A stretch of DNA of 31,684 nt, from the NCBI GenBank assembly GCA_032249095.1, contig JAVVGN010000015.1:1-31684 (forward strand). The letters are read 5' to 3'. Positions 688 to 29,397 of this stretch are shown here, piece by piece (positions within the stretch are counted from its first letter, which is position 1; every line of letters starts with the position of its first letter). The DNA is from Candidatus Caldarchaeales archaeon. Its GTDB lineage: Archaea > Thermoproteota > Nitrososphaeria_A > Caldarchaeales > Calditenuaceae. The translations under genes were made by a program, and so were the position numbers. Under the pieces are notes generated by a model. It searched no databases. It saw only the letters and a list, made by a program, of their open reading frames with translations, and was not told where the DNA came from.

Positions 688-699
688 ATTATTCGGCAG
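688..699 (-). promoter_or_regulatory. conserved 12-mer CTGCCGAATAAT (candidate -10-type promoter element)
   Basis: Exact copy, 41 nt upstream of the ATG at 646. Confidence 0.6.
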
Positions 700-748
700 A
701 CCTGTAGGTGTCTGTCACCTGCCGTCGGCTCCAGCCGACAGTATCTCA

Positions 749-982
749 TTATTTATCGCCTTTGGTGGTGCGGGCGACGATGCGCCCCGTGTAGATGCCC
801 TTGACAGGATAGCCATCCAAAAAATCGGGCAAGTTCGCCTCTTCCACAGGGATGCTCAAGAGGACGCTCAGGTAAGTTTGCCCTTGCGCATCCTTTCGGA
901 TGCCGACCCCGACGACACCAGGCAACTGCCGAAGGCGCTCGGCATGTCGCTTCAAGACGACTTCAATGGGTTCTTTGGGCAT
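749..982 (-). CDS. small hypothetical protein (77 aa)
   Basis: ATG at 982 follows AAGGAGGGGAGTGCT. The longer 95-aa start in the ORF track has no SD. Confidence 0.6.
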   Translation of the reverse strand: MPKEPIEVVLKRHAERLRQLPGVVGVGIRKDAQGQTYLSVLLSIPVEEANLPDFLDGYPVKGIYTGRIVARTTKGDK

Positions 983-1032
983 AGCACTCCCCTCCTTTAT
1001 AGCTGAATTATAGTGTAGGTGTCGGGATAACT

Positions 1033-1638
1033 TCAAAGAAACATTTGAAGGATTAACCCCTGAAAGGCTTTGACAATTGCACCAAAATCTCCGTGAATTC
1101 GCCCTGACTCCTCAAACTCCTTTTCGCTGAACCATCGAAGGTCAAAAACCGGCTCCTTTAGCCCTTCTACAAGTCTTGCCTCTAAATCTATCCGATGACA
1201 GCCGTGGGTCTTCGGCTGTCGATAGTTTTTAGTTGCCGAGAGCCTACAGGCGGCAAAGCCGTCGTTATTATAGTAGGAAAGAAAGAAATGAACGTCAAAG
1301 TCTTTTTCTAAGGGAGCAGAAAAGTATTTTGTAAGCAAATAGACAGTTATCAAGCGAGCGAGTGCGCCCGCATTTCTCGGCTTAAAAGCGACCTCATCTG
1401 GCCCAGTGTGGAGGCAATTTCCAAACAGGTAGGACCCCTCTGCGAAAATAAAGAGTACCGCTGAAATGCTCCCCCCGTCAACTTTGCCGCCTACTTTTAC
1501 AGCCCAATGCGGCCCGATGGAGGGCAGCGGCTGGGGTTGTTCAATTTGGTAGAAAGCCTCTTTTACGAGGCCTGTCCTTTCTATCTCCTTGACGATGAGG
1601 TTTAGGGTTCTTACGATAGCCGCCTTGTTAGTAGGCAT
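1033..1638 (-). CDS. array paralog, subfamily C (MPT.K N-terminus)
   Basis: ATG at 1638 lies 11 nt after GGAGGTG. N-terminus MPTNKAAIVRTLNLIVKEIERTGL resembles 14460-15080 and 3048-3644. C-terminal tail is AIVKAFQGLILQMFL. 12-mer lies 26 nt upstream. Confidence 0.75.
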   Translation of the reverse strand: MPTNKAAIVRTLNLIVKEIERTGLVKEAFYQIEQPQPLPSIGPHWAVKVGGKVDGGSISAVLFIFAEGSYLFGNCLHTGPDEVAFKPRNAGALARLITVYLLTKYFSAPLEKDFDVHFFLSYYNNDGFAACRLSATKNYRQPKTHGCHRIDLEARLVEGLKEPVFDLRWFSEKEFEESGRIHGDFGAIVKAFQGLILQMFL

Positions 1639-1664
1639 AGCGGACAACGCACCTCCAGCAGCCT

Positions 1665-1676
1665 ATTATTCGGCAG
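1665..1676 (-). promoter_or_regulatory. conserved 12-mer CTGCCGAATAAT
   Basis: Exact copy, 26 nt upstream of the ATG at 1638. Confidence 0.6.
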
Positions 1677-1745
1677 AGGCGTCGGAGCAGCACGAGCGGA
1701 AGGGAACGCACACCAGTGGCGAAGGGAGCAAACTGGTTATTAGGG

Positions 1746-2333
1746 TCATACGGCGATAGACAGGGCGATGCCGTGAATGAGGGAGATTAGGAAGGATAGA
1801 GGATTTTGCCACGCAGGGCATTCAAAGGTTTTCCATGACCATTCGGGACGATCTTCGCAGCTAACCCGCCACTTGTTGCTGGGAGAATAGTAGCGAAAGC
1901 AGAACTCATAGCCATTGAGGAGAACGGCGAGGTCGCCGTCTTTGAACCTTGCAAATAATCCTTTTCTTAAAACCAACCTTTTCGCCTCAGTCAGTATGAT
2001 GTTATCAAGGAAGGCAAAGATGGAATTTTTCAGGGTATCAAGCTTTAGGTCTGAATCTTTCCCTGCGTGGAGGCAATCAATCACCTCGTTGCGGTCGTCA
2101 AAGAGGAAAACGACGCAAGGGCAGTTGGCATGCTGAAGCAGGCGGGCTGCTAAAGCGCCTATTGGCCGACCGTGCCACTCGACTGTCCATACAACTTCAT
2201 TAGGAGAGGGCATGCGCTTTCGGATTTTCATTCCTTGCCCTTGACCTTGCCACCCCTTAATTTCGCTATCGACAATTTCGATAATCTTGGCAAAAGCTTG
2301 ATTTGGCTGCCGTTTGGAAGCCTTTTGAGCCAT
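1746..2333 (-). CDS. array paralog, subfamily D (clear paralog of 25452-26042)
   Basis: ATG at 2333 follows AAAGGGGTGACCAATAAG. SPNEVVWTVEWHGRPIGALAARLLQ, ILTEAKRLVLRKGLFARF and QNPLSFLISLIHGIALSIAV align with 25452-26042. Confidence 0.75.
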   Translation of the reverse strand: MAQKASKRQPNQAFAKIIEIVDSEIKGWQGQGQGMKIRKRMPSPNEVVWTVEWHGRPIGALAARLLQHANCPCVVFLFDDRNEVIDCLHAGKDSDLKLDTLKNSIFAFLDNIILTEAKRLVLRKGLFARFKDGDLAVLLNGYEFCFRYYSPSNKWRVSCEDRPEWSWKTFECPAWQNPLSFLISLIHGIALSIAV

Positions 2334-2356
2334 CTTATTGGTCACCCCTTTGGCGA

Positions 2357-2368
2357 ATTATTCGGCAG
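2357..2368 (-). promoter_or_regulatory. conserved 12-mer CTGCCGAATAAT
   Basis: Exact copy, 23 nt upstream of the ATG at 2333. Confidence 0.6.
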
Positions 2369-2417: not shown

Positions 2418-3023
2418 TCAAAGCGTCGCCATAAGCGTCACGCCTCTGAAAACCTCGTCTGGGTTGGAAAAATCGCCAGTGGCAATAACTGTGCCGTCAG
2501 CCCGAATGACCTCGATTAGCGGGCAGTTTGTATCTCCATAACGGACGATGACGCTTAGGCTGCTATCCTTAAATCCGCAACTTTTTAAGTCAAAAAGGCA
2601 TTCAGCGGTGCTCCCATTATATCTGAGGAGGACTGGTGGCGCAATAGCACTTTTGCTTGGTGTCGTCAAAAGGCTAAGTCTTGATGAAAGGTATATCCCT
2701 AAAAAGAGAACGGTAATTATTCTGCACAGGTCATCAAGTCTCTTCATTCCGAAGAAGATGGCTCCGCACTGAGGGATGATTTTAATGTCAGAAAAGCTAA
2801 CCCTGTAATTTCTTAACACCGAAAATCTAAAAACAATCTTACATTCAAATACTTTTCCCTCGACGGTTACGCGCCACCAAGGCTTATAAAAGCTAAACAA
2901 TTGTGTGGGACTGACCATATAGGAGAAGTCGGTTATCATACCAAGTTTTTTGAGCTTGTGTGCAAGACCATGGAGGGTTCGGTTAATATTTTCCTTCATC
3001 TTCGTTATGATGTGTGCCGCCAT
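2418..3023 (-). CDS. array paralog, subfamily C
   Basis: ATG at 3023 lies 9 nt after GAGGTG. FFGMKRLDDLCRIITVLFLGIYL aligns with 3048-3644 and 1033-1638. C-terminus is FSNPDEVFRGVTLMATL. Confidence 0.7.
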   Translation of the reverse strand: MAAHIITKMKENINRTLHGLAHKLKKLGMITDFSYMVSPTQLFSFYKPWWRVTVEGKVFECKIVFRFSVLRNYRVSFSDIKIIPQCGAIFFGMKRLDDLCRIITVLFLGIYLSSRLSLLTTPSKSAIAPPVLLRYNGSTAECLFDLKSCGFKDSSLSVIVRYGDTNCPLIEVIRADGTVIATGDFSNPDEVFRGVTLMATL

Positions 3024-3047: not shown

Positions 3048-3644
3048 TTAAAGGAGCAATTGGCAGACCAACCCATTGAGGATTTTCCTCGCCGTCGCGG
3101 GGTCACTCAAGATGATTGGTTCGTCGTGGAGCGGGACACCTGCGGGGTATTCAAGCCTAACCGATAGTTCCTTTGTGTCTCGCAGTAAAACAATACGAAG
3201 GGTGGCAATAGGCGCGCGCCCAGGGCTGTAGGAGCCTTGCTCGGCTATCTTTATGGTGCTTTTCGCAAAGGCACGATCGATTGTGAAGAATTTTCATATC
3301 TTATATTGCTGTTGAAATGGGCGGGCGAAAAAGTCGCCAACCAGAAGGACAGCTGTTACGGCAGCGAGGTCGTCTGTGTGCTGTTTTCCAAAAAAGATGG
3401 GTTTATAATCAGATAGGATGGCTTCGTAAAAGATAGCCCTGTTGTTTTTAAACACGATGATTATCCCATCGACCCTCTGGGCATCGATATAGCCGCTGAT
3501 GTCTATATGCCATTCACGCGTGTCTCCCCAAGAAGTCTTACCAAGCCAAACTCGATAGGTAGTGTTCTTTATAAAGCCAACCTCTGCTACCTTGCGGGAG
3601 ATAATATCGGCAATCCGACAGATAGTGGCTTTTTTCAAGGGCAT
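3048..3644 (-). pseudogene. array paralog, subfamily C, interrupted by an in-frame TGA at 3294-3296
   Basis: ATG at 3644 with SD GGAGGTGATTACCAAG. The frame is open on both sides of the TGA. The 81 codons after it end in LSDPATARKILNGLVCQLLL then TAA (3048-3050), matching the family C-terminus. Total of 199 codons equals the paralog length. Confidence 0.6.
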
Positions 3645-3668: not shown

Positions 3669-3680
3669 ATTATTCGGCAG
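3669..3680 (-). promoter_or_regulatory. conserved 12-mer CTGCCGAATAAT
   Basis: Exact copy, 24 nt upstream of the ATG at 3644. Confidence 0.6.
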
Positions 3681-4921: not shown

Positions 4922-5253
4922 TTAAAGAGCGGAAAGATACAGTCCCTTCACGATATGGCTAAGCACGGAGATTGGATTTTCTTCGTGTCGTCCTCTGACG
5001 CTATCCACTTTTGCCCATCCGTATGGAGGTTGGTTCTGCCATTTTCTGATAGTCCAAGTCCAAGTTGTCTTTCCTAAGCGGAATAAGATTTCGTACTGCT
5101 GATTGCCTATAGTTACATATAGGGGTTTACCTGACTTTCGTATGAGTGAGCCCCGTCGTGCAAGGGGGCAACCTCAAACCCCCAGCTCTCCCACAGGGAT
5201 TTGAACTCGTCAAGGATTTCAGTGACTTTCTCAATGAGTTCTCGGTTGGTCAT
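4922..5253 (-). pseudogene. miniature array paralog (subfamily A termini only), split by a frameshift
   Basis: Frame 1 runs from the ATG at 5253: MTNRELIEKVTEILDEFKSLWESWGFEVAPL... and stops with TAA at 5113-5115. Frame 2 is open from 5173 to the TAA at 4922-4924 and encodes ...GKTTWTWTIRKWQNQPPYGWAKVDSVRGRHEENPISVLSHIVKGLYLSAL. Confidence 0.5.
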
Positions 5254-5278: not shown

Positions 5279-5290
5279 ATTATTCGGCAG
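5279..5290 (-). promoter_or_regulatory. conserved 12-mer CTGCCGAATAAT
   Basis: Exact copy, 25 nt upstream of the ATG at 5253. Confidence 0.6.
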
Positions 5291-6591: not shown

Positions 6592-6621
6592 AGAGTTAAT
6601 TTCGGCGCCGAAATTAACTCT
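6592..6621. promoter_or_regulatory. perfect 30-bp palindrome AGAGTTAATTTCGGCGCCGAAATTAACTCT
   Basis: Perfect dyad, 22 nt upstream of the ATG at 6569 and 60 nt downstream of the RHH gene stop. Confidence 0.65.
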
Positions 6622-7013: not shown

Positions 7014-7580
7014 TTAAAGGTATAGCAATCCTTCCGCCTTTACTATGTTCAGGCACGCCTCAATAGGATTGACGGATATAGGCTGGCGGACGACGGCGGG
7101 TTTGCGTGGCGGCGTGGCAAACCCCCTCTGCGGGAACTCTGTTAAGGTGACCGCCCAAGTCCAAGTTCGTTTGCCCAGCGAGAATTCCAGAGACAGTAAT
7201 TGTTGCTTTGTCCGCCGAGATATGCATCGCCCTTTTCTCGTCCAGACAATGGGCAGTTTCTTCCAAGCTAAGAAAGCGACGAAGTTTTCCAGAACTCGGC
7301 GGAGACGCCTTTCCGTCCACTGAAGCAGTGCCCCGTCGCCCTTCTCCCACTCTTGCGGGCAGACGAATGTCTGTCGCCATCCGAGCCAGAGACGAACCCC
7401 GCCTGCCTCTTCCACGACGAAAAGGGCTTCGTGCCTATCGCCCGCTTGGTTGGAAAGTACCCAGTGACGACCACCATTTATGGAGCGGTATTTCACTTCT
7501 AACCCCCACAGCCGACATATCGGCGCTATTTTGTTCTCTATCATCTCAACGACGGCGTTGTAGTATTCTCGGCTGGTCAC
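7014..7580 (-). CDS. array paralog, subfamily A
   Basis: GTG at 7580 lies 9 nt after AAGGAGGG. Contains IAPICRLWGLEVKY and RTWTWAVTL...NPIEACLNIVKAEGLLYL. The ORF-track extension reads through the 12-mer. Confidence 0.7.
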   Translation of the reverse strand: MTSREYYNAVVEMIENKIAPICRLWGLEVKYRSINGGRHWVLSNQAGDRHEALFVVEEAGGVRLWLGWRQTFVCPQEWEKGDGALLQWTERRLRRVLENFVAFLAWKKLPIVWTRKGRCISRRTKQQLLSLEFSLGKRTWTWAVTLTEFPQRGFATPPRKPAVVRQPISVNPIEACLNIVKAEGLLYL

Positions 7581-7608: not shown

Positions 7609-7620
7609 ATTATTCGGCAG
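7609..7620 (-). promoter_or_regulatory. conserved 12-mer CTGCCGAATAAT
   Basis: Exact copy, 28 nt upstream of the GTG at 7580. Confidence 0.6.
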
Positions 7621-7650: not shown

Positions 7651-8247
7651 TTAGAGTGCTTGCAAAGCAATTCCCTTCCGAAGCTGGTGGAAGAACTCTA
7701 TGGGGTTTTCTGCCAAATCCCGCTTGAACCGCCCGATGGATTGTTTCGTCAGAAAAGTCTTTACTTCCCACACCCAATTTTTCGTTAACAGGTGAAAGTA
7801 AAGGCGGAAAACCTCGTCGCCTGCCTTAACGAGCAAGTTGGGTCGGTAGCGGACGCTTTTGTTCGTAATGAAAGCCACGACAAGTCTGGCGACAAAGTGC
7901 CTATAGGCAGCTCGAATAAGGTTTTCTGCCGTCGCCTTGTCAGTGTGGTTGTTAAGAAAAACCAAAGTATTTATGACGGACGATGCGTTAATGAAAACTC
8001 TGTCATCTATTGCGCAGCGAACGGGAATGTATGTATAAAGCTCAAGGTAGGCGCTTCTTTGGTTGCCCCACCTTATCTCCCAAAGCTTGCTGACAATCTT
8101 AATTTGGGGCGCTCCTGCGATGGGTTGATAGCTATCTCCTTCCGCTGGCTGTGGTGTCACTTCAAATCCCCACGAGACCAGCAGCGGGAGAAATTCGTCC
8201 TGCCAAATTTGCTTGGCGGTTTCGTAAAGGCAGTCTTTGCTGTTCAT
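7651..8247 (-). CDS. array paralog, subfamily A
   Basis: ATG at 8247. Contains FLPLLVSWGFEV and KNWVWEVKT...LAENPIEFFHQLRKGIALQAL. Confidence 0.75.
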   Translation of the reverse strand: MNSKDCLYETAKQIWQDEFLPLLVSWGFEVTPQPAEGDSYQPIAGAPQIKIVSKLWEIRWGNQRSAYLELYTYIPVRCAIDDRVFINASSVINTLVFLNNHTDKATAENLIRAAYRHFVARLVVAFITNKSVRYRPNLLVKAGDEVFRLYFHLLTKNWVWEVKTFLTKQSIGRFKRDLAENPIEFFHQLRKGIALQAL

Positions 8248-8266: not shown

Positions 8267-8278
8267 ATTATTCGGCAG
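8267..8278 (-). promoter_or_regulatory. conserved 12-mer CTGCCGAATAAT
   Basis: Exact copy, 19 nt upstream of the ATG at 8247. Confidence 0.6.
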
Positions 8279-8285
8279 AGTAACC

Positions 8286-8855
8286 CTAAAGCGTCAAAAG
8301 GGAAATGCACCTTCGGATTTTATCCACTAATTCTGGGATGCTTTGGGCGAACACCCGTATCGGTGGATGCCCTTCGGGCTTCAAAAAGATATTCTCTCCA
8401 GTCGCAAAAAACTCAATAGAAACCAATTTCCTTGACGGTGTGATGGCTGCAATTTCTTGAACCCTTTTTGTCCCTTTTATAACATTCGACATTGGGAGAA
8501 TATCCTCCAAAATTAGAGAGACCCTAATCTTTGTAAAGAGCAGTTCCGATGTTACTTCTCTCGCCCTTTCGAAGAAAGCTGCCCAGATATTTCTGATTTC
8601 TGTGGGGGAGAAAACATCGGAAGCGACATCGTTCTCTATAATTATCCTGTCGGCTGGCAGACGGGCGACGACGAAAACCAAATGGTAGCTGTCCTCGTTG
8701 CCATTGTAGAAGGGATATAAGCGCCAGATATGGTAATCTATTTCCCCCTCATTTCGTCGGCTATAGCGGCAGGTAATCCCCCACGCCGAGAGAAATCGGA
8801 CAAATCGCCTGTTGAACAGGTCAACGAGTTGCGAAACTTCAATCCGATAAGGCAT
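8286..8855 (-). CDS. array paralog, subfamily A (divergent C-terminus)
   Basis: ATG at 8855 after GGGAGGCAAAGGTAG. Contains FVRFLSAWGITCRY. C-terminus is ELVDKIRRCISLLTL with a TAG stop. Confidence 0.7.
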   Translation of the reverse strand: MPYRIEVSQLVDLFNRRFVRFLSAWGITCRYSRRNEGEIDYHIWRLYPFYNGNEDSYHLVFVVARLPADRIIIENDVASDVFSPTEIRNIWAAFFERAREVTSELLFTKIRVSLILEDILPMSNVIKGTKRVQEIAAITPSRKLVSIEFFATGENIFLKPEGHPPIRVFAQSIPELVDKIRRCISLLTL

Positions 8856-8873: not shown

Positions 8874-8903
8874 GAGAGTTATTTTCGGCGCCGAAATTAA
8901 CCC
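8874..8903. promoter_or_regulatory. 30-bp palindrome, imperfect copy (2 arm mismatches)
   Basis: AGAGTTATTTTCGGCGCCGAAATTAACCCT, 18 nt upstream of the ATG at 8855. Confidence 0.6.
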
Positions 8904-8917: not shown

Positions 8918-9511
8918 TTATATCAGAAGGGTCGTCAGGGCTTTTGTGATGATATCGGCAATATCTCCTTCCGAAGGGACATCGGCAACTACATCGTATT
9001 CGTTTTCCCAATGATCAAAACCGTCCATGTAGCGGATGTGGATTTTTCGCAAAGTAAATTTGATAATAACTCTATAGTGGTTTGGTAATACAAGCTGGTT
9101 TTTGCCTAAATGAAGCGCTTTTGGAATGCGGGTTGCCACCATACATGTCAGAAGTTTAGAAGTCAATGAATTCATCTGCCCGTAGAACTGCCGCCAATCG
9201 TCGGCGCTGAACGCACCTTCCTTATCTGGACGGACAATCCACGGGGCGTGGGTGGCGATGTAAATGTACGTCTTATAGAAGTCTTCATCTTTGTCTTTTA
9301 TATCAGCGAAATAAAGACCGTGCTCCGCAGGGGTGGGTGGCGGAACGGTAATTACAAAAGAAGTTCCTTCTATCTGCCCACCAGATTTCCTGATGGCATC
9401 GACGGCGAAGTAGTATTCTAAGCCCGTTTCTTTTACTTGAACTCCCCCCATGCGTTTGAGAATAGGGATGTACTTCTTAGCGACGATATAGGCTAGTTTT
9501 TTCGACAGCAT
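8918..9511 (-). CDS. array paralog, subfamily B (paralog of 4273-4893)
   Basis: ATG at 9511. Contains KKYIPILKRMGGVQV, WRQFYGQMNSLTSKLLTCMVATRIPKA and SEGDIADIITKALTTLLI. Confidence 0.75.
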   Translation of the reverse strand: MLSKKLAYIVAKKYIPILKRMGGVQVKETGLEYYFAVDAIRKSGGQIEGTSFVITVPPPTPAEHGLYFADIKDKDEDFYKTYIYIATHAPWIVRPDKEGAFSADDWRQFYGQMNSLTSKLLTCMVATRIPKALHLGKNQLVLPNHYRVIIKFTLRKIHIRYMDGFDHWENEYDVVADVPSEGDIADIITKALTTLLI

Positions 9512-9573: not shown

Positions 9574-9585
9574 ATTATTCGGCAG
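9574..9585 (-). promoter_or_regulatory. conserved 12-mer CTGCCGAATAAT
   Basis: Exact copy, 62 nt upstream of the ATG at 9511. Confidence 0.55.
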
Positions 9586-9621: not shown

Positions 9622-10248
9622 TCAGAGGGAGACGGCAACGACGAGGGCGCGGAAAAGAGTTTGGTATGCGTCAAAGGGGTTTTCTTGAAGGTCTTCCTTG
9701 ATGGTGGCTACATCTTTGAAGATGCCCGTGTCAGTTACCACCTTTGCTTTCCAGACCCAGCACTGCTTATAAAGACGGAAGGACACACTTGTTATGGTGT
9801 TACCTATCTTGCTGTAGAAGGTAAGCGTGTGTTGGGCGGGGTTTTGGCAGATTTTCCCTACGGCGAAGCGGGCGATAGAAGTGCGAAATGCCTTTCGTGC
9901 TAGCTCTGGTAGTTGTTCAATGTGATACAGAAAGGGGTCTCCGTAAATATACACTCTTTCTTCATCCGCCTCGCTGCTCCAAAAAGTTACTCTGAGGAGC
10001 TTCCCGAAATCGATGCTAGTGGTTTTTCTAAGGACACTGCTGTAGTCGCTCTTGTAGCAGATACTAAGGTGGACTGTCTCCTTGCCGTCAGAGATGACCC
10101 ACCCGCTCTCTTGGAATGCCCCGCCGTCCCCAAACCGCCCGCACCTCTCGACGGGGTATTGGTTGACGGAAATCCCCCACTTTTCCAGCAAGGGGGCGAA
10201 CTCCTGCTGCCAAATTTGGCAAATCGTGTAGTAATCTTCCAATTGCAT
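9622..10248 (-). CDS. array paralog, subfamily A
   Basis: ATG at 10248 after GGAGGTGCACAGCG. Contains FAPLLEKWGISV and QCWVWKAKV...LQENPFDAYQTLFRALVVAVSL. Confidence 0.75.
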   Translation of the reverse strand: MQLEDYYTICQIWQQEFAPLLEKWGISVNQYPVERCGRFGDGGAFQESGWVISDGKETVHLSICYKSDYSSVLRKTTSIDFGKLLRVTFWSSEADEERVYIYGDPFLYHIEQLPELARKAFRTSIARFAVGKICQNPAQHTLTFYSKIGNTITSVSFRLYKQCWVWKAKVVTDTGIFKDVATIKEDLQENPFDAYQTLFRALVVAVSL

Positions 10249-10270: not shown

Positions 10271-10282
10271 ATTATTCGGCGG
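10271..10282 (-). promoter_or_regulatory. 12-mer variant CCGCCGAATAAT
   Basis: One mismatch to the consensus, 22 nt upstream of the ATG at 10248. Confidence 0.5.
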
Positions 10283-11542: not shown

Positions 11543-12958
11543 TTAGTCGGCGACTTCAACGACTTTTGCCCAACTGGGCATCTTGTCTTTGCTTTCGTGC
11601 TTTTCCCCAATGAGGCAGATGATGAGCGGTAGGGGTGTTGGGTCTTCAGGGAATGGTGAGTAGCCGTCGGTCAGGACGACGATGGCGTTGTAGCGCCTTC
11701 GCCGCCTTTCCTGTAAGGCTCGGTTGATGCCTTCTACCATATCCGTCCCGCCACGCCCGACAATTTCCCTGACCTGCGAAAACGACTTAACATCACGGAC
11801 GATTTTGTGGACGGCGGCATCGCACATGTAGACATCCACTTTGATGTTCGCCTGTCGGGTGATGCCCAGAATTTCCGCAAGCGCCCGCTCAATCTCTGCC
11901 ATAGACATACTTCCGCTTGTGTCAAGGACAGCAGCAACGGCGTCTGCGTCATATTGCACCATTGACGGGATGACGAAGGGATGATAGGCTTCGCCTCGGC
12001 GGTTCGGGTAAAGGAAGGTATAGTCCTCTTTGCCCCTTGCGGCATTCGTCCGTGACTTGCGGATAAGGTGAGCGAGCAATTGACGCCAGTTGATTTTGGG
12101 GTTAAGAATTTGTTCGGCGATTTCCACCAAGTCGGCTGGAACCGTTCCCCTATTTTTGGCGTGCTCCTTGATTTGGCGGGCGGTCTCTTCCATTCGGGCA
12201 CGAATCTGCGCTTCCGATGCGCCCGGCTGGTCTTTATCTTGTGGGTCTAATTCATAGTCCTTCGGTGTGCCAGCGCCACTGCCACCTTCATCCAGCCGTT
12301 GCGGGAGTGTCGGGTATTTGTGCCCCTGCACTAAGATAACCGTGCCACCCGACCCCTTTCCTTGCTTCCATTGCTGCATAAAGGACTCAGGGATGCGCAG
12401 GTAGTACTCTTCAGCGCTCAATCCCTCAGGCAACCCAAGTTTTTGGGGCAAGAAGATGAGTTCCGTCAGTTGCGGGTAGGGGGCAAGGTCAAGATGTTGA
12501 TTGATTTCCAAGTCCGCTGCGATGTTCCATTTCTCGTGGTCGTTAGGCGTGACGCCCATCATCGTCGCCCTGACAGAGTGGCGGCGGAAAAGATGCTCAA
12601 TTTCGTGTCGCAGAATTTCCACCATCAGGTTAATCGGGTAGTCCGAGATAACATCAGAGTCAAGAAACTGTTTGAGACTTTCAGTGGTGATGACCTTCGG
12701 AAATTTCGGGTGAAAGGACAGGACGAAGAAGGGGTTGAAGTAAATCCGTCCCCACTTATCTACTGCAACCGTGTCGCAACCGATGACCTTGACGAAGCGG
12801 AGAAGCCCCGCCAGTGGCGCATAATAGGGATAGCGGGCGAGCTGGCTCGTGCGGAAGCCCCACGCCCGTGCCGCCCGCAGGAGTTCCAGCGCCTTGTCAA
12901 AAGCCAAGTCAAGCACCTCGTCGCTAATCTCAACGACCTTGATTTCTGGCTTTTTCAT
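11543..12958 (-). CDS. Zn-metallopeptidase-like (HExxH) N-domain fused to a VWA domain (DUF2201-like architecture)
   Basis: HEIEH motif in EILRHEIEHLFRRH. MIDAS-type DxSxS in AVLDTSGSMS. Sits immediately downstream of a MoxR-like ATPase, the usual pairing. Confidence 0.75.
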   Translation of the reverse strand: MKKPEIKVVEISDEVLDLAFDKALELLRAARAWGFRTSQLARYPYYAPLAGLLRFVKVIGCDTVAVDKWGRIYFNPFFVLSFHPKFPKVITTESLKQFLDSDVISDYPINLMVEILRHEIEHLFRRHSVRATMMGVTPNDHEKWNIAADLEINQHLDLAPYPQLTELIFLPQKLGLPEGLSAEEYYLRIPESFMQQWKQGKGSGGTVILVQGHKYPTLPQRLDEGGSGAGTPKDYELDPQDKDQPGASEAQIRARMEETARQIKEHAKNRGTVPADLVEIAEQILNPKINWRQLLAHLIRKSRTNAARGKEDYTFLYPNRRGEAYHPFVIPSMVQYDADAVAAVLDTSGSMSMAEIERALAEILGITRQANIKVDVYMCDAAVHKIVRDVKSFSQVREIVGRGGTDMVEGINRALQERRRRRYNAIVVLTDGYSPFPEDPTPLPLIICLIGEKHESKDKMPSWAKVVEVAD

Positions 12959-13004: not shown

Positions 13005-13016
13005 GTTATTCGGCAG
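13005..13016 (-). promoter_or_regulatory. 12-mer variant CTGCCGAATAAC
   Basis: One mismatch to the consensus, 46 nt upstream of the ATG at 12958. Confidence 0.5.
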
Positions 13017-13032
13017 AGCGGAGCGTCGGAAG

Positions 13033-13066
13033 GTGGGGCGGGGCAGGTTCGTCTGCCCCACCCCAC
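13033..13066 (-). terminator. GC-rich hairpin downstream of the AAA+ gene
   Basis: 14-bp stem with one mismatch (GTGGGGCGGGGCAG / CTGCCCCACCCCAC) and a 6-nt loop. No clear U-tract. Confidence 0.3.
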
Positions 13067-13076
13067 GCTTCAGCAT

Positions 13077-14324
13077 CTAACTGGCGAGGCTTTGCTGCCA
13101 CTTCGTCACGATTGCCGCAAGGCTGTCAACCACCCGTTTGAAGTCGGGAGGCACATAAGGTGGAAGCTTGCTAGCTGGTGTCACCATAATCTGCAAGATT
13201 GTCCAATATTTGTCAATGTTGACGGACGGGTCACGGGCGACTTCGTTCATATAGGACAGAAGCATCAAGGCGAGGTCACGACGGTTCAACTTATCTGCGT
13301 CGGCAAGTTTGACGGCGAAGTTGGCGATAAGCGTGAAGATTTTGTTGTTGCGCTTTTTCGCTGCGTCGTAGTAAATTTGGGCGATGTTAGAGATGAGCAA
13401 CAATTGGGTGTCTTCCTTGCTAGGGAAAGGCGCTTTGCCTTCCAGCACCGCCATCGGGTCTGGCATATCCAAATTCTCAAGCCAGTGGATGAAAGGAGTT
13501 GCGGCGCTGCCGCCGATGCAACCGACGGCAAGGAGCCCGTGCAGTTCCGTCGCCCGATGCTCCGTCAAGGAGATGCCCCAGTAAAGGTCAGCAGCTGCCA
13601 TCAACTTCGTCAAAAACTCCCAGCTTCGTGGTGATGGGAAGGCGTAACAGTCGGGGAACTCCATCCCTTCACGAGGGAGTTGGTGAATAAGCGATGGGTT
13701 GACTTTCTCAAGGAAGGTGGCGACGACGCTCCCCCACTTTCGCAGGTAGGGCGTCATATTAGCATCCCAAATCGCCTTCAGCCGCTCAATAATCTCGTTG
13801 TCCTCAGCAAAACTCCCGAAGCGGAAATAGTTGGCAATCGGCTTAGGCGCTGGCGGCTGGAATTGCAGATGGACGAAGCGGTTCGCCATCGGAAGAGACA
13901 GCTCAAAACCCAACCCCGTCATCTCAGACGGGTTGCCCGCACCCAGAATGCGGGTCTGCGGGTGGAGTTTGAAGTCGTCAACGGCTCGCTCAAGAATGAG
14001 ACGCAACAATGCTGCCCACACGGCAGGTGGAGCAGCGGTAATCTCGTCAAGGAAGATGAGGCTCGGTTCAGTGGCAGCGACTTTCAGAAAGTAGGGGCGC
14101 TCAAACTGCGTTCCGCTCTCCGTGCGGTAGGGCAAGCCACGAATGTCCGTCGGGTCTAAAGTTGACCCAATAATTGTGAACACCTTGAAGCCGAGCGCCG
14201 CGCCGAGCGATTCCACGAAGCGGGATTTGCCGACACCCGGATAGCCCCACACCAGGGTCGGCACATCCGCCTTCAGCGCCACGCCAATCGCCTCTTTGGC
14301 AAGTTTCTGTTCTGCTGACGCCAT
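13077..14324 (-). CDS. MoxR-like AAA+ ATPase (AAA_5 type)
   Basis: Walker A GYPGVGKS, Walker B LIFLDEI, sensor region ILGAGNP and ANRF. TAG stop. Confidence 0.85.
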   Translation of the reverse strand: MASAEQKLAKEAIGVALKADVPTLVWGYPGVGKSRFVESLGAALGFKVFTIIGSTLDPTDIRGLPYRTESGTQFERPYFLKVAATEPSLIFLDEITAAPPAVWAALLRLILERAVDDFKLHPQTRILGAGNPSEMTGLGFELSLPMANRFVHLQFQPPAPKPIANYFRFGSFAEDNEIIERLKAIWDANMTPYLRKWGSVVATFLEKVNPSLIHQLPREGMEFPDCYAFPSPRSWEFLTKLMAAADLYWGISLTEHRATELHGLLAVGCIGGSAATPFIHWLENLDMPDPMAVLEGKAPFPSKEDTQLLLISNIAQIYYDAAKKRNNKIFTLIANFAVKLADADKLNRRDLALMLLSYMNEVARDPSVNIDKYWTILQIMVTPASKLPPYVPPDFKRVVDSLAAIVTKWQQSLAS

Positions 14325-16991: not shown

Positions 16992-17003
16992 ATTATTCGG
17001 CAG
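16992..17003 (-). promoter_or_regulatory. conserved 12-mer CTGCCGAATAAT
   Basis: Exact copy, 27 nt upstream of the TTG at 16964. Confidence 0.6.
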
Positions 17004-17491: not shown

Positions 17492-18082
17492 TTAGATTAG
17501 GGCAATGGCTAATGCCCGTGCCACTTGCCGAAAGTATTTCATTGGGGGTCTGCTCACTTTCCTTTCAAATTTCCATAAAGCTCTACCTGAATTGTCTTCT
17601 AAGATAAAAGCCCAAGTTGAAAGGTCGTTGTTCACTTTAAAGGAAAGAAAAAGGGGCAATTCTCCAACCTGCATTGTGCTACCCGTCTCGTCAAGCCATA
17701 AGCAGTTAAACCCCCGATGGTCAAGGTAGTCGTAAAGTAGATGAGTAACGAAGACGGAGACGCACCCTGCCAAGGCGGCGGATACAGCCTCCGCTTCATC
17801 CCACGAGTACCGCTGCTTGGCAGGAAAGGCGGCGTCTCCATACATAAGGTGATTACCAATAAGCACATCCTTGCCCCATCGCTCTATAACGAAAATACCC
17901 CGCCTAACCAGCTCCTCAAGCGTTGACGGCGGCCAAGCCCCCCAGTCGCAGAAGGAAAAATCATTCCGTACAAGGTAGTAAGTACACATCTTATCGGCGC
18001 TTCGTTTTACCTCTACCACCAGCCCCCACTTTTCAAGTATGGGGATAAACCGTTGCTCAATGATTTGGCGGATGGCTTTCAT
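17492..18082 (-). CDS. array paralog, subfamily A (close to 18257-18883)
   Basis: ATG at 18082 after GGAGGTGATAGAG. Contains FIPILEKWGLVVEV and LSTWAFIL...RPPMKYFRQVARALAIALI. The ORF-track N-terminal extension reads through both regulatory elements. Confidence 0.75.
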   Translation of the reverse strand: MKAIRQIIEQRFIPILEKWGLVVEVKRSADKMCTYYLVRNDFSFCDWGAWPPSTLEELVRRGIFVIERWGKDVLIGNHLMYGDAAFPAKQRYSWDEAEAVSAALAGCVSVFVTHLLYDYLDHRGFNCLWLDETGSTMQVGELPLFLSFKVNNDLSTWAFILEDNSGRALWKFERKVSRPPMKYFRQVARALAIALI

Positions 18083-18145: not shown

Positions 18146-18175
18146 AGAGTTAATTTCGGCGCCGAAATTAACTCT
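18146..18175. promoter_or_regulatory. perfect 30-bp palindrome AGAGTTAATTTCGGCGCCGAAATTAACTCT
   Basis: Perfect dyad. The only copy combined with a 12-mer. Confidence 0.65.
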
Positions 18176-18256: not shown

Positions 18257-18883
18257 CTATAAAAGGGTGAGACTGAGCATTTTCTCTACCTGCCTGAAAT
18301 ACTTCATTGGCGGGCGCTCCTTCCTTTTTCTGAGCTGGCAGGTAGCCCCCGCTCGTGTGGCGATCTTGAATGCCCAGAAGGGTGAATCATCTTGCAGATT
18401 GAAGGCAATCGTTACTTCCTTAGGGTCTGGAAAGTCCAAAAATATTTCGTGCCCGTTCCAGCGATTGTGTCGGATGTCCTTCCAGCCACGACGGGTTAGG
18501 TAGCAATATAGCGATGCGACGATGAAGGCGGAGATGCATCGGGTAAATGCACGGCTCAATTCCTCAGCCAAGTCCCTATAGCGATGATACCATATCGGGG
18601 GGAAGGGGACGCCCTCTGCAAAGTAGGGGCTGCCGACTACAAAGCCCAAAGGCGTCTTTTCCACGATGATTATAGTCCTATCGAATGGCAGATGGGGGCA
18701 GTCGCAGTCGTCCTTGACGGCCCAAAGTTTCTCGCTGTCGGTGCTTCGGCGACTTTCTACGACTTTCAGCCCCCATAGTTTCAGCAGAGGAGCATATCCT
18801 ACTCGCACTACCCGCCGAAAGAAGTCAAAGCTCAGCGGCTCGTCCTGTTGGCGCTTCGCAATAAGGCGCTGAATAGCCTGCAT
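18257..18883 (-). CDS. array paralog, subfamily A
   Basis: ATG at 18883. Contains YAPLLKLWGLKVVE and SPFWAFKI...RPPMKYFRQVEKMLSLTLL. Confidence 0.75.
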   Translation of the reverse strand: MQAIQRLIAKRQQDEPLSFDFFRRVVRVGYAPLLKLWGLKVVESRRSTDSEKLWAVKDDCDCPHLPFDRTIIIVEKTPLGFVVGSPYFAEGVPFPPIWYHRYRDLAEELSRAFTRCISAFIVASLYCYLTRRGWKDIRHNRWNGHEIFLDFPDPKEVTIAFNLQDDSPFWAFKIATRAGATCQLRKRKERPPMKYFRQVEKMLSLTLL

Positions 18884-18904: not shown

Positions 18905-18916
18905 ATTATTCGGCAG
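18905..18916 (-). promoter_or_regulatory. conserved 12-mer CTGCCGAATAAT
   Basis: Exact copy, 21 nt upstream of the ATG at 18883. Confidence 0.6.
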
Positions 18917-19566: not shown

Positions 19567-20193
19567 CTAAACCCGTGCCACATATACTAATCGTAAGATA
19601 TTGTCAAAATGGTTTAGCGGATTTTCAGTAGCTTTCCTTTTGTATGACGGTAGCCTGTGGAAGTGATTATTAAGGGAATCGAAAACCGCAAGACAGAAAG
19701 CCCATTTTGGTTTGCTATGGCTGAATTCAAAACGGACGGAAAGATACCGTCTATCGTCAATTTTTACATCTACCCAATAATTCATCTCTTGGGGATAAGT
19801 GGTCTCCAGACAGCTCAAGCCCCTTTTTGTGCAGTAGCAATAAAACAGGAAAGTAATAAAGGACGAGACAGCGCAGTCGCAAAGGTGGCGCATCACCTCT
19901 TTCTCTTCTTCCGTATACTTTCTTTTTACGAAAAACACCTCGTCAAAAGTCCGACCGTAATCGCTAACCACCCAATATTTTTCCTTGCGCCCACTAACTT
20001 TTGTGATTATCAACAAGGTAAAATCTTCGTCAATAAGCGACTGCTTGGCTCTATCCACATACTGGGAAAGGTCAGAAGTGACAAGGAACAGGGCGCTGCC
20101 CCTCATGGTAATTGGTTTTTCCATAAGGAAGAGCCCCCATTCCGCCAAGACGGGCGCATATTCTGACCGCAGCATCTTCTTGAGCACTTGCAC
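19567..20193 (-). CDS. array paralog, subfamily A (AT-rich)
   Basis: Contains YAPVLAEWGLFLME and KPKWAFCL...TENPLNHFDNILRLVYVARV. Start is either GTG at 20193 or ATG at 20175, and neither has a strong SD. Confidence 0.65.
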   Translation of the reverse strand: MQVLKKMLRSEYAPVLAEWGLFLMEKPITMRGSALFLVTSDLSQYVDRAKQSLIDEDFTLLIITKVSGRKEKYWVVSDYGRTFDEVFFVKRKYTEEEKEVMRHLCDCAVSSFITFLFYCYCTKRGLSCLETTYPQEMNYWVDVKIDDRRYLSVRFEFSHSKPKWAFCLAVFDSLNNHFHRLPSYKRKATENPLNHFDNILRLVYVARV

Positions 20194-24841: not shown

Positions 24842-25411
24842 TCACCTCGCCTTTTGAGAGTTAATTTCGGCGCCGAAATTAACTCCCCAGCCGACAGCCT
24901 TGTAGGGGATTTCTGCGGGGGTGGTTTTGACGAACATAATTTGGGCGATACCTGCGTAAGGGTAAAGAGAAATATCCCGTGCGGGGTTGAGGTTGACGAC
25001 GGTGAAGACCAGTTGACCGCTAAAACCAGCGTCCACGACGGTCATATTGTATGCTAATCCCTGCCGTGCATAGGTGCTTTTCCCAAACAATAGCCCGACA
25101 AGGTTCGTCGGTAGGCTGAAGGTTTCCAGACTGGCGACTTGGAGGCAATGGTAGGGAGGTAGCGGGAAATTCTCGCCCTCGCCCAGTTCTATTACCTCAA
25201 CATCGCCGTTTTCTAGCTCTACGAGTCCGCCTTGCCGACCCCGAAGTTTAGGGCGAAACCATACGAAGCGGGGGTGCAGGCGGAAAGTATAGCCGTGTGG
25301 GTCTAGCCCGTAACTGATGCCCATCAGTTGACGCTTTTCAGGCACGAAGTCGGTTATGAAATCGGGCTTCTCTGCCACGAGCCGTTTGATTTCTGCGTCG
25401 CTGAGAAACAT
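24842..25411 (-). CDS. dcd: dCTP deaminase/dUTPase-superfamily protein
   Basis: MFLSDAEIKRL, SLETFSLPTNLVGLLFGKSTYARQGL and VVDAGFSGQLVFTVVNLN align by eye with the Dcd motifs ([31 protein letters not shown].N). SD is GGGGTGACCGCCG. Confidence 0.7.
   Translation of the reverse strand: MFLSDAEIKRLVAEKPDFITDFVPEKRQLMGISYGLDPHGYTFRLHPRFVWFRPKLRGRQGGLVELENGDVEVIELGEGENFPLPPYHCLQVASLETFSLPTNLVGLLFGKSTYARQGLAYNMTVVDAGFSGQLVFTVVNLNPARDISLYPYAGIAQIMFVKTTPAEIPYKAVGWGVNFGAEINSQKAR
24857..24886. promoter_or_regulatory. 30-bp palindrome (29/30), embedded in the 3' end of the dcd-like CDS
   Basis: AGAGTTAATTTCGGCGCCGAAATTAACTCC, 21 nt upstream of the ATG at 24835. Encodes ..VNFGAEINS.. of the dcd-like protein. 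Confidence 0.6.
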
Positions 25412-26771: not shown

Positions 26772-26801
26772 AAAGTTAATTTCGGCGCCGAAATTAACTC
26801 T
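26772..26801. promoter_or_regulatory. 30-bp palindrome (29/30)
   Basis: AAAGTTAATTTCGGCGCCGAAATTAACTCT, 5-14 nt upstream of the candidate starts of 26065-26766. Confidence 0.6.
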
Positions 26802-26882: not shown

Positions 26883-27077
26883 CAACTCGTGCATACTGTT
26901 TAGGCTTGCGCCACCAGCAACTCATGCTTCCCTTATAGGCTTGCCTTGTCGACAACTCGTGCGCTTATGCCTACAAAATGCCGTCCCTCCAACTCGTGCA
27001 GAATGCGCTACTTCTCTATCGCCCCCCAATCAACTCGTGCATTGACTTAAACTTCGGTGCGGCTTCAACAACTCGTG
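26883..27077. repeat. iteron-like array: six direct copies of CAACTCGTGC
   Basis: Copies start at 26883, 26918 (CAACTCATGC), 26953, 26990, 27031 and 27068. Spacing is 35-41 bp. The array is non-coding, between 27119-27991 and the palindrome at 26772. Confidence 0.75.
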
Positions 27078-27118
27078 CCTTACCGCAAATTCAGCCGTCA
27101 GCGCCTTGCGCTCAATTT

Positions 27119-27991
27119 CTAAGGGATGGTGTGTTGCTTCATTCGTTCCACGATGCCTTTTACGAAGGTGGCTACTTTTTCGTCTTCTTCGTCTTGCAGC
27201 ATATTTTCTACCTCTTGGATAGCCCGCAGGACTTGTGGGAGTGCCTTTCTGGGGTGCATCATCATTTCGGGCGGGATTTTGGTGGCGTGCCCCAAGTGTA
27301 TCACGGGATAGATTTCCACGACTGGCAGACCTTGAGTTTTTCGGGCGACTTCCCACAGGTGGGTGACAAAGATATTCGCTGCCTTGACTATCGCTGCGAA
27401 ATGACAGTGCCCTTTCGTCCAATCGGGATGGTCTTGCTGATACTTCTCTTTATAGCTGGCATAAAGTTCCGCCAGTAGGTTAGGCGAGCGCTTGTAGACG
27501 AGAAGCGACTGCTTGACGATAAGGTAGAGGACACTTTTCGCTTTAGGGTTGTAGGGGCGAACTTTACCTGGCTCGGCTTTCACGATTTTACCTGTGCGGG
27601 GGTCGGGAGCGACACCGCAGTGTTTGGCAAGGCAGGACGGATAAACCCTCGCAGCGGGGTTTCCGATATAACCAAGCAACCTACCAAAAAGGTGCTTGCC
27701 GACTCCTGGGATGAAGGCTGCCCACTGCTTCCATTCGGGAAGGTCTGAGACGATGCGGGCGATTTCCCCTTCCGCCCGCTCTCGTGTGGCGAGGGCAGCC
27801 CCCGCATCTGCTAGAAGAAGGTCTCTGCACTTTGATGCCGCCTCCTTCAGAAGGGGGGACTGTTCAAAGCGCCGTAACGACTGAAGACGCTTTAGGGCAT
27901 CGTCCCACAGCCTTACCCACATCCCCAGCTCGTTGTAAGGCGGCATCCATAGTCGCTCTTTGTCCACTCGCAGTTCGGTTTTGAACGACAT
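27119..27991 (-). CDS. protein with an IS110-family C-terminal (Transposase_20-like) domain and no DEDD/RuvC-like N-domain
   Basis: FIPGVGKHLFGRLLGYIGNPAARVYPSCLAKHCGVAPDPRTGKIV...YNPKAKSVLYLIVKQS matches the IPGIG....L.A.IGD...F.....LA.Y.GL.P....SG pattern. The N-terminal 90 aa look coiled-coil with no GIDxxK-type motif. ATG at 27991 follows GGGAGG. Confidence 0.5.
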   Translation of the reverse strand: MSFKTELRVDKERLWMPPYNELGMWVRLWDDALKRLQSLRRFEQSPLLKEAASKCRDLLLADAGAALATRERAEGEIARIVSDLPEWKQWAAFIPGVGKHLFGRLLGYIGNPAARVYPSCLAKHCGVAPDPRTGKIVKAEPGKVRPYNPKAKSVLYLIVKQSLLVYKRSPNLLAELYASYKEKYQQDHPDWTKGHCHFAAIVKAANIFVTHLWEVARKTQGLPVVEIYPVIHLGHATKIPPEMMMHPRKALPQVLRAIQEVENMLQDEEDEKVATFVKGIVERMKQHTIP

Positions 27992-28040
27992 GGGGGCATC
28001 GCCTCCCACTCGTTTTACGCTGTCATTAGCATATTATACT

Positions 28041-28616
28041 CTATGCCCCTTTGCGGCGGTAGCGTCGGTTCTCAATTTTCTCATAATTGACCTTTACCCC
28101 CTTCCTCATGGGGATTTCGGCGACGATTTCGTGGCGATACTTAGGGCTTGTTGTGCCGTCGCCAAACTCCCTAGATGCCAGCACGAGAATCGTCCTGTTG
28201 TTGACATCAAAGAGGTAGAGCCACTCCAGAAAGAGCGGGTCGCATTGCGGGTCGGGATTCCCGTCGTGGCAGTCGCAACCCCACTTGAGCATACTGTGAA
28301 ATCCGTCCCGCTTGAGGAAATATTCGCTATGGCAGTAGCATTGGGGAGCGTCGGCGTTTTCGTCCAATTTCCAACCGCCCAGACTGTTGGGGTCAAGGAC
28401 GATGCGTCCGCCCCGCTCTAGGCGTGACCAACCGCCAGGGTGCTCCAAGATAACGCTCTCCACGACTTTCATCACATCCCAGTCACAGTCGGGTAGGACT
28501 TCCTCTATGAGCGTTCGCAGTAGCCCCTCTGGGTAAGAGTCGTAGTGATGGTAAACACCAATCCAGCGCAACGGCTTACGGCTAATCAGAACGCCAATGA
28601 CGCCTCGTGTCGCCAT
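28041..28616 (-). CDS. hypothetical Cys/His-rich protein (191 aa)
   Basis: ATG at 28616. 12-mer lies 45 nt upstream. Contains a CYCHSEYF...[16 protein letters not shown] cluster. Confidence 0.65.
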
Positions 28617-28661
28617 CGTCTATTACCTCCCTTCGGTAGGGTTTGTGTCTGCCACCTACCT

Positions 28662-28673
28662 ATTATTCGGCAG
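28662..28673 (-). promoter_or_regulatory. conserved 12-mer CTGCCGAATAAT
   Basis: Exact copy, 45 nt upstream of the ATG at 28616. Confidence 0.6.
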
Positions 28674-28782
28674 GGGCAGCCCCCATCTGTCGCAGGCGGG
28701 ACAGCATCAAAGCAAGCCGCCGGCTGGAGCCGATGGCAGTTCCTTCTCTCGTAGGTAATGCTGGCGGAAGTCTTAAGGGCTC

Positions 28783-29364
28783 TCACAGGAGAGAAAGACC
28801 AATACCTTTGACGATGGCTGGGAGCGCTTCTATGGGGTTTTCCGTAAGCGGTCGGCGAACGCTCTCTATCGTCACCAAACCCACCCCGTCTACGCCCTGC
28901 CGCACTTGCCAAGTCCAACCATTTCGTCGCAAGTAGAAGGAAAAGCAGAATAACTCGCATTCGCTCTCCCCAGAAAGCTTAAGGTAGAGATGTTTGCCCG
29001 ACTTCCAAATGTAAAGTCCAGTCTCTTCAATGGCAACTGCTTGGGCTGCCTCTAACACTAACCATTCAGTTAGCCTCTCAAAGAAAGAGCGAATGTATTT
29101 CCAATTTTCTTCCCTCGCCCTAATATGGTCGCAGTTTTTCTCGTTGCTGTTTAGATAGATCCAAGGTACAGCATCTTCGGGCACACTGTCGGGTGAGGGG
29201 GGCTCAACACGGATGCGGAGCGGACGGAGAACATTACCTCCGTGCTTAATCAGCTATAGTCCGACGGCGACAGGCTGGGCATCAATGCCCCAGCCTTGCC
29301 ACAGTTGGGCAAACTCGTTAAATATCTCCGTCAACTTGCCTTTGGCTGCACTTAAGCCGTTCAC
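28783..29364 (-). pseudogene. array paralog, subfamily A, interrupted by an in-frame TAG at 29254-29256
   Basis: GTG at 29364 follows GGAGGTGATCGTA and encodes VNGLSAAKGKLTEIFNEFAQLWQGWGIDAQPVAVGL then TAG. The same frame continues LIKHGGNVLRP...NGWTWQVRQ...TENPIEALPAIVKGIGLSLL. Total of 194 codons equals the family length. Confidence 0.6.
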
Positions 29365-29385
29365 TACGATCACCTCCGCCCGCTA

Positions 29386-29397
29386 ATTATTCGGCAG
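29386..29397 (-). promoter_or_regulatory. conserved 12-mer CTGCCGAATAAT
   Basis: Exact copy, 21 nt upstream of the GTG at 29364. It starts 1 nt after the TAG stop of the methylase gene. Confidence 0.6.

Follow-up and report, generated by a model that had tools for sequence, protein, structure and literature searches.

A strand-specific 12-nucleotide motif as a probable core promoter in a family of large hot-spring mobile elements

Genes along contig JAVVGN010000015.1, whose 31,684 nucleotides (nt) were analyzed at full length (the window), are repeatedly preceded by a 12-nt motif, CTGCCGAATAAT. The motif is a strand-specific intergenic signal under strong purifying selection, and it is a property of an element family, varying in step with the element lineage. 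We consider it probable that the 12-mer serves large mobile or extrachromosomal elements of one family as their core promoter, read by a bacterial RNA polymerase with a dedicated factor of the sigma-70 family. Its best reading is as a promoter that would need no -35 element and is predicted to start transcription 6-9 nt downstream.

Copies and anatomy of the motif

Scanning of the window for CTGCCGAATAAT with at most one mismatch returned 17 matches, all on the minus strand and none on the plus strand. Fifteen of the 17 are exact, and the single-mismatch variants are CCGCCGAATAAT (10271) and CTGCCGAATAAC (13005). A preliminary description of this DNA had given the same counts and coordinates and had put the number expected by chance far below one; in 100 dinucleotide-preserving shuffles the expectation was 0.11 ± 0.31, and none of the 100 reached 17. 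All 17 copies are intergenic, and 16 lie 17-62 nt 5' of a start codon. The distance classes described earlier were reproduced: the 3' end of the motif is 19-28 nt from the start at 11 copies (29386, 18905, 18104, 16992, 10271, 8267, 7609, 5279, 3669, 2357, and 1665) and 41-62 nt from it at five (28662, 14367, 13005, 9574, and 688; here called the long-leader form), and one copy is the distal member of a tandem pair. A Shine-Dalgarno sequence of the GGAGG type was found between motif and start in 16/16 proximal cases, as had been claimed, and the motif indeed stands tight against an upstream stop codon at 14447 and 29386 (1 nt) and at 8267 (7 nt). All long open reading frames of the window are on the minus strand, the same as the motif, which precedes about a third of the ~47 genes. 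The copies are listed below.

29386-29397, minus strand: motif CTGCCGAATAAT, 1 nt past the stop codon of the DNA methyltransferase gene 29399-30277 (TAG-T-motif) and 21 nt 5' of the GTG of paralog pseudogene 28783-29364
28662-28673, minus strand: long-leader motif, 45 nt 5' of the ATG of gene 28041-28616, with GG at +9/+10
18905-18916, minus strand: motif, 21 nt 5' of the ATG of paralog 18257-18883, with orthologous copies in relatives L174, L177, and L125
18104-18115, minus strand: motif, 21 nt 5' of the ATG of paralog 17492-18082, with a 28-nt palindrome hairpin immediately 5'
16992-17003, minus strand: motif, 27 nt 5' of the TTG of gene 16374-16964, which is followed by tRNA-Arg(TCT) at 16286-16363
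14447-14458, minus strand: motif, distal copy of the tandem pair before the AAA+ gene, 1 nt past the stop codon of gene 14460-15167 (TAG-T-motif) and 68 nt 5' of the 14367 copy
14367-14378, minus strand: long-leader motif, proximal copy of the tandem pair, 42 nt 5' of the ATG of the MoxR-type AAA+ gene 13077-14324
13005-13016, minus strand: long-leader variant CTGCCGAATAAC, 46 nt 5' of the ATG of the DUF2201/VWA gene 11543-12958, with a 14-bp G+C hairpin 5' of it, within 13017-13076
10271-10282, minus strand: variant CCGCCGAATAAT, 22 nt 5' of the ATG of paralog 9622-10248; L177 has CTGCCGAATAAT at the orthologous site
9574-9585, minus strand: long-leader motif, 62 nt 5' of the ATG of gene 8918-9511
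8267-8278, minus strand: motif, 7 nt past the stop codon of gene 8286-8855 and 19 nt 5' of the ATG of paralog 7651-8247
7609-7620, minus strand: motif, 28 nt 5' of the GTG of paralog 7014-7580
5279-5290, minus strand: motif, 25 nt 5' of the ATG of a truncated 46-residue paralog remnant, 5113-5253
3669-3680, minus strand: motif, 24 nt 5' of the ATG of gene 3294-3644
2357-2368, minus strand: motif, 23 nt 5' of the ATG of paralog 1746-2333
1665-1676, minus strand: motif, 17 nt (TTG) or 26 nt (ATG) 5' of the start of gene 1033-1647
688-699, minus strand: long-leader motif, 41 nt 5' of the ATG of gene 92-646, with a hairpin 5' of it

The tandem pair before the AAA+ gene is also kept in five relatives (L051, L056, L174, L177, and L125). 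Two of the paralogs, 28783-29364 and 5113-5253, retain a perfect motif and Shine-Dalgarno sequence with a broken coding sequence; the former has one in-frame stop at codon 37, and the latter is cut to 46 amino acids with many stops after that point.

Between orthologous sites of the window and its relatives, 12 of 432 motif positions (2.8%) are changed, mostly at the last base, compared with 416 of 1080 positions in the 30 nt upstream and 102 of 288 in the 8-nt downstream spacer of the same sites (35-39%). A pooled set of 278 non-redundant motif sites was analyzed for the surroundings of the motif. Seven core positions (G-C-C-G-A, and later T and A) were preset by the pooling pattern; the pooled data are therefore silent on the conservation of these positions, for which the comparison of orthologues is the test. 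The pooled core, with seven positions so preset, reads C-T-G-C-C-G-A-A-T-A-A and then T>C>A,G, and position -1 is a pyrimidine in 82% of sites. Upstream, the information content is at most 0.1 bit at each position from -60 to -2 with no enrichment of A, and the 278 sites give no signal for a -35 element, in agreement with the preliminary description; nor do they hold any other conserved promoter element from -60 to +30. A promoter and terminator consensus scan of the window likewise gave no enrichment of canonical sigma-70 promoters.

Downstream, the 3' flank consensus proposed earlier, (A/G)G, had to be replaced. The pooled sites instead show W-R-G and, after a poorly conserved spacer, a fixed-distance Y-G-G, in which the pyrimidine at +8 is present in 72-75% of sites, the G at +9 in 78-81%, and the G at +10 in 79-84%; position +6 is depleted in C. 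The Y-G-G signal also holds in the 196 sites that lie outside the selection by the search pattern. At the 91 long-leader sites, where the functional Shine-Dalgarno sequence is 15-30 nt further 3', GG is found in 64% of cases versus 7.5% in the background. The spacing between motif and start codon is bimodal, one mode being tight at 21-22 nt and the other spread over 37-50 nt. Sigma-54 geometry (GG 10 nt 5' of GC), checked by eye, is absent from the aligned sites, and a DNA inverted repeat (CTGCC...GGCAG) was rejected because +9 is G instead of A.

Action on transcription and the element family

Strict intrinsic terminators end 7-35 nt 5' of 37 of the 278 sites, versus 0.6 in shuffles; the strict criterion was used as a lax one was uninformative (123 sites versus 90 in shuffles). 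Dense loci have the order gene, G+C hairpin, T run, motif, 8 nt, GGAGGTGA, start codon. With a terminator just 5' of the motif the upstream transcript would stop, which leaves the motif as the sole conserved element before the next gene. Besides unrelated protein genes, the motif precedes a non-coding gene for a mini-transfer-messenger RNA (mini-tmRNA), and at three different loci exactly 12 nt separate it from the mature 5' end of this 120-nt RNA, which scores 62.7 bits against the Rfam tmRNA model.

L154 7425-7544, minus strand: mini-tmRNA, 120 nt
L072 2182-2301, plus strand: mini-tmRNA, 120 nt
L137 841-960 (reverse-complement coordinates): mini-tmRNA, 120 nt

The mini-tmRNA folds with an acceptor stem containing G3-U70, a T arm, and an ACCA end, and one long helix replaces the mRNA part. 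A motif ahead of a non-coding RNA gene argues for a signal for transcription and not for translation, and the distance to the mini-tmRNA 5' end places the start within 12 nt of the motif. Bacterial RNA polymerase usually prefers a pyrimidine at -1 and a purine at +1, a preference matched by the Y-then-G at +8/+9. Co-oriented, intergenic, and placed before unrelated genes and the mini-tmRNA, the motif behaves as the locus-wide expression signal that the preliminary description had proposed, and not as part of the paralog repeat unit.

The same arrangement recurs in related DNA, with same-strand copies on ~90 metagenome contigs, two of them 107 kb and 256 kb long. Relative L050 shows 72% identity in its AAA+ protein and carries 11 copies within 10 kb, all on one strand, and L174 and L177 have 14-17 copies each. 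At equivalent positions, L056 carries the variant TTGCCGAATAAT and L044 carries TTGCCGAGTAAA or ATGCCGAGTAG. When metagenomes were scanned for the motif with a nearby GGAGGTG, 114 stretches were returned, ~70 of which hold 2-16 one-strand copies upstream of start codons. All motif-bearing metagenome stretches derive from a small group of hot-spring sample series, and contigs near-identical to the window occur in several hot-spring metagenomes; a related sample, 3300005858, is from a thermal site in Yellowstone (PMC8787282). Two contigs, one of 255,739 bp and the other of 106,681 bp, contain regions orthologous to the window, which indicates that the element is itself very large or belongs to a larger entity. 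The motif is restricted to contigs of this element family and is absent before housekeeping genes. The pattern of motif plus Shine-Dalgarno sequence gave one match, at chance level, in IMG/VR and 37 single matches, mostly intragenic and none multi-copy, in 185,579 GTDB representative genomes, so that no host genome or known virus carrying the signal emerged from these collections. The AAA+/VWA region had no blastn match among phages, the AAA+ profile found no relatives in IMG/VR, and a literature search for the motif strings returned unrelated primer sequences only.

Most of the ~47 window genes are without a Pfam or PHROG match. Those with matches encode the MoxR-type AAA+ ATPase (13077-14324), the DUF2201/VWA protein (11543-12958), a trypsin-like protease, a dCTP deaminase, a DNA methyltransferase, a protein with a weak IS110-type match, and a helix-turn-helix (HTH) protein. 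The 131 largest non-redundant proteins of motif-rich loci match mobile-element functions only (primase/helicase, ParA, integrases, TnpB, methyltransferases, HNH endonuclease, and dCTP deaminase), with no housekeeping or capsid proteins among them.

The array proteins of ~200 amino acids form one superfamily, with at least 12 members in the window (for example 9622-10248, 7651-8247, 17492-18082, 18257-18883, and 19567-20193) and 108 in the pooled loci, and share a conserved W-G near the N-terminus and an N-P motif near the C-terminus. The AlphaFold model of one member (mean predicted local distance difference test score, pLDDT, of 83) consists of two beta-sheet-plus-helix halves and has weak matches in the PDB to Whirly, PUR-alpha, and MRP proteins (E about 0.006-0.1, template modeling score ≤0.30). 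Homology blocks shared by the window with L177 and L174 begin 14-44 nt 5' of motif copies, with extra genes between the blocks; gene units have apparently been gained and lost as modules.

A promoter model and its alternatives

In the model that we favor, a family of elements of at least 256 kb from neutral hot springs would use the 12-mer as its core promoter. A bacterial multi-subunit RNA polymerase with an element-dedicated sigma-70-family factor, either element-encoded or an alternative host sigma, would bind the block independently of any -35 element. Its G+C half, (C)TGCCG, would be recognized as duplex DNA, as an extended -10 is, melting would take place in A(A/G)TAA(T), the A+T half, and transcription would start at a G 6-9 nt past the motif. 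This range follows from two registers, since that of sigma-28 would place the start at +6/+7, where G occurs in 53-62% of sites, and Y-G-G suggests +9. Short-form mRNAs would begin at or just before the Shine-Dalgarno sequence (5'-GGAGGUGA, 5-6 nt, AUG), and long-form mRNAs would begin with GGAC(G/A)CAAAA, with the Shine-Dalgarno sequence 15-30 nt further on. Together, motif and terminators would make many genes into separate promoter-gene-terminator units, and genes without a motif would be co-transcribed with the upstream gene or driven by other signals. The earlier suggestion of a promoter read by a dedicated sigma factor or polymerase, or belonging to an unusual host, is supported by these computational tests. 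The mechanism is probably of the ordinary alternative-sigma type; what our comparisons support as new is a putative -35-independent, element-specific promoter in an uncharacterised family of giant hot-spring elements.

Several observations weigh against this model. The search of accessible element DNA for a sigma factor or RNA polymerase gene, proposed in the preliminary description, yielded none among the window proteins (Pfam and PHROG, relaxed thresholds) or the 131 pooled proteins, which together represent the visible fraction of the element. A match to sigma-28 requires a 1-nt insertion and its TAAA -35 is absent, and with a start at +9 the A+T block would be displaced upstream by 2-3 nt relative to standard promoters. 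In RNA, CUGCC could pair with the downstream GGYGG, given tolerance of G-U pairs. The genome bin that contains the contig is archaeal, and leaderless mRNAs from an archaeal TATA box would likewise be compatible with the sharp 21-22 nt spacing to starts.

The closest known element is that of sigma-28 (FliA/SigD/WhiG), whose consensus for the -10 region, GCCGATAA, spans -15 to -8; its GC serves as an extended -10, and the A at -11 is flipped out (PMC12784957). The core found here, GCCGA(A/G)TAA, keeps the same letter order; its G+C part could be a duplex-read extended -10 with the next A as the flipped -11 base, and a purine start would be expected a few nt downstream. It differs in that 278 of 278 sites read GCCGA(A/G)TA(A/G), with one extra base before TAA (most of these positions being preset by the pooling pattern), in the lack of a TAAA(G) -35 where one is expected ~15-16 bp 5' of the -10 region, and in two more conserved upstream bases (C, T). 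The genes served are orphan mobile-element cargo and not flagellar genes, and no sigma-28-like gene was seen among the proteins scanned. Identity with a sigma-28 promoter was rejected because the 1-nt insertion is universal among the 278 sites and the TAAA -35 is absent. An extended -10 sigma-70 promoter (TGnTATAAT) was also rejected: the TG is three bases 5' of AATAAT, misplaced as the preliminary description had noted, and the AGTAAA/AGTAGN of relatives lose the equivalent of T-7. T4 late promoters, TATAAATA, are read by gp55 with the host core polymerase and consist of a single short -10-region block with no -35. The motif resembles these and other -35-independent phage promoters as one short, element-specific block near -10 that serves many genes; it is unrelated in sequence, however, and half G+C, and many of the units here are closed by an intrinsic terminator of their own.

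Instead of host polymerase with sigma, an RNA polymerase encoded by the element (single-subunit and T7-like, or divergent and multi-subunit) might read the promoter, which we regard as unlikely. Promoters of phage polymerases typically are blocks of this kind, near-perfectly conserved, contiguous, specific to the element, and repeated at many genes, and the scanned proteins contain no sigma factor. T7-type promoters show unbroken conservation from about -17 to +3 or further and give transcripts that start with G; they share with the motif near-identical copies across the replicon, strict orientation, and G starts (GG in the transcripts inferred here). Conservation in T7-type promoters runs right through +1, however, whereas eight poorly conserved positions separate the block from Y-G-G here, and hairpin-plus-T terminators and the Y(-1)/R(+1) rule suit a bacterial core enzyme. 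No polymerase gene was found among the 131 protein families, drawn from the parts of the element seen, and there are no relatives in IMG/VR. Given the terminators and the spaced geometry between block and start, a bacterial multi-subunit enzyme with sigma fits better than a T7-type enzyme.

The question of an archaeal promoter is tied to that of the host, as the contig belongs to the genome bin of a Candidatus Caldarchaeales archaeon (MDT7877596.1, locus tags RQ862_). In such a host, CTGCCG would be the B recognition element (BRE) and AATAAT(WR) the TATA box, with a start ~23-25 nt downstream and leaderless short-form mRNAs; archaeal transcription begins about 23-27 nt past the TATA box. Along with the binning, the single asymmetric block of G+C followed by A+T, the lack of a -35, and the sharp peak at 21-22 nt to many starts speak for this arrangement, which we nonetheless rate as quite improbable. 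A start at +23 would truncate the mini-tmRNAs, whose 5' end is 12 nt past the motif at three loci; the Shine-Dalgarno sequence of the short form would stay inside an untranscribed gap; Y-G-G at +8 to +10 would be left without a role; and the base preceding ATG is usually a purine. Known BREs are purine-rich, which CTGCCG is not. G+C hairpin and T-run terminators of bacterial type are strongly enriched, and the related element L044 has, at 2681-3006, a full-length bacterial tmRNA of 163.6 bits (its predicted tag peptide is atypical). For the AAA+, VWA, and primase proteins, the closest homologues among outgroups come from bacteria, and the tRNA-Val of the window is ~80% identical to E. coli tRNA-Val. 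Shine-Dalgarno sequences stand at essentially every gene, and their use together with the tmRNAs and hairpin terminators argues for a bacterial host. The contig is probably a mobile-element contig mis-binned into an archaeal genome. The tRNA-Val(TAC) gene (31273-31348, minus strand) and the tRNA-Arg(TCT) gene (16286-16363, minus strand) lie inside the gene array, each after a protein gene and with no motif of its own.

If the 12-mer were instead a site for an element-encoded DNA-binding regulator, beside weak or unrecognised promoters, its length of 12 bp and high specificity, the conserved tandem pairs before the AAA+ gene, and the HTH protein encoded at 30413-30916 would all be in keeping. 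We hold this to be decidedly improbable, as the motif is asymmetric and strictly oriented with the gene, contains the sole A+T stretch for melting, keeps a fixed distance to Y-G-G, and is accompanied by no other conserved promoter element between -60 and +30. Highly improbable, in our judgment, is an element acting in the RNA 5' leader, whether a protein-binding operator, a processing site, or a hairpin of CUGCC with GGYGG/Shine-Dalgarno that controls translation. The motif is always near a Shine-Dalgarno sequence, GGYGG (+6 to +10) pairs with CUGCC if G-U is allowed, and 72% of sites fold so at 37 °C. That hairpin is marginal, though, at -4.8 versus -3.9 kcal/mol for a shuffled motif at 37 °C and -1.1 versus -0.5 at 65 °C, and A is nearly absent at +9 even though U-A pairs better than U-G. 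Upstream terminators often leave no transcript carrying the motif, the mini-tmRNA genes behind it have no ribosome-binding site, distal tandem copies lack a Shine-Dalgarno partner, and long-leader sites keep GG though the true Shine-Dalgarno sequence lies elsewhere. We attach almost no weight to the idea that gene units are shuffled through the motif, as a recombination site or cassette boundary (integron-like, or targeted by a transposase), and that its place upstream of genes is coincidental. Homology blocks do begin 14-44 nt 5' of motifs, the cargo does consist of one-strand arrays of orphan genes, and some loci do contain integrase and transposase genes; yet the block boundaries are not at the motif itself, and the fixed spacing to Y-G-G and the Shine-Dalgarno sequence and the position of the mini-tmRNA would go unexplained. 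Integron attC sites are imperfect inverted repeats (RYYYAAC...GTTRRRY), whereas the motif is non-palindromic, with no conserved inverted partner upstream.

Other repeats, candidate regulators, and implications

Further repeats accompany the motif on these elements. Six copies of GCAYGAGTTG, 35-41 nt apart (0.46 expected), occupy 26883-27078 on the minus strand, directly 3' of gene 27119-28009, which encodes a 296-residue protein with a weak match to the IS110 C-terminal domain (Transposase_20). The same pair of gene and array, with ~24 copies of GCACGARTTA, is found in L044 (15527-16558), at the end of this 45-kb relative. The array resembles a set of iterons or, with the product of the adjacent gene as its binding protein, a centromere. 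A perfect 28-nt palindrome, GAGTTAATTTCGGCGCCGAAATTAACTC, has five copies in the window (6593-6620, 8876-8903, 18147-18174, 24858-24885, and 26773-26800; 0 expected), three of which precede the start codon of a gene without the 12-mer by ~20 nt; its possible roles are those of an operator, a second class of promoter, or a hairpin in RNA. Some motif copies, among them the distal one of the AAA+ tandem pair, are preceded at ~15-30 nt by an A+T-rich palindrome, AATTTATT..AATAAATT, which may be an operator at regulated promoters; its positions in relatives are as follows.

A+T-rich palindrome: L051 near 4000; L056 near 2260; L066 near 1945; L129 near 2510; L154 (reverse complement) near 5900

Relative L051, which has three motif copies and a split AAA+ gene, carries at ~900-2700 an array of clustered regularly interspaced short palindromic repeats (CRISPR) with ~26 repeats (CTTTCAATCCCACAATGGTTCGATTGCTAC). 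The array adjoins motif-bearing genes, a ParA gene, and a Prim-Pol/D5 primase, and its repeat had no match among PLSDB plasmids. Near the upstream end of the window contig, 30413-30916 (minus strand) encodes a 167-residue protein with a weak HTH match of the XRE/Cro type (HTH_31, E = 6e-4); a 50%-identical homologue is lambda repressor-like in the naming of the Joint Genome Institute (JGI), and the protein is a candidate regulator.

A bolder view, to which we assign a small but real chance, is that the element has its own specificity system, dissimilar to known sigmas and polymerases, and drives hundreds of insulated units through a 12-bp, -35-less promoter on a replicon of at least 256 kb. 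The abundant orphan families would supply candidate specificity factors, one being the ~200-residue superfamily with its weakly Whirly/PUR-like fold. Still more radical would be a version with a Caldarchaeales host and an element that imports bacterial-style signals.

The motif provides a sequence tag by which contigs of very large hot-spring mobile elements can be retrieved from metagenomes, and the elements so tagged consist almost wholly of orphan genes and are absent from IMG/VR and the GTDB representatives. The promoter-gene-terminator layout and the element-encoded mini-tmRNAs make testable predictions for metatranscriptome data. If the cognate factor were found, it would form with the 12-mer a thermophile-derived, orthogonal pair of promoter and specificity factor.

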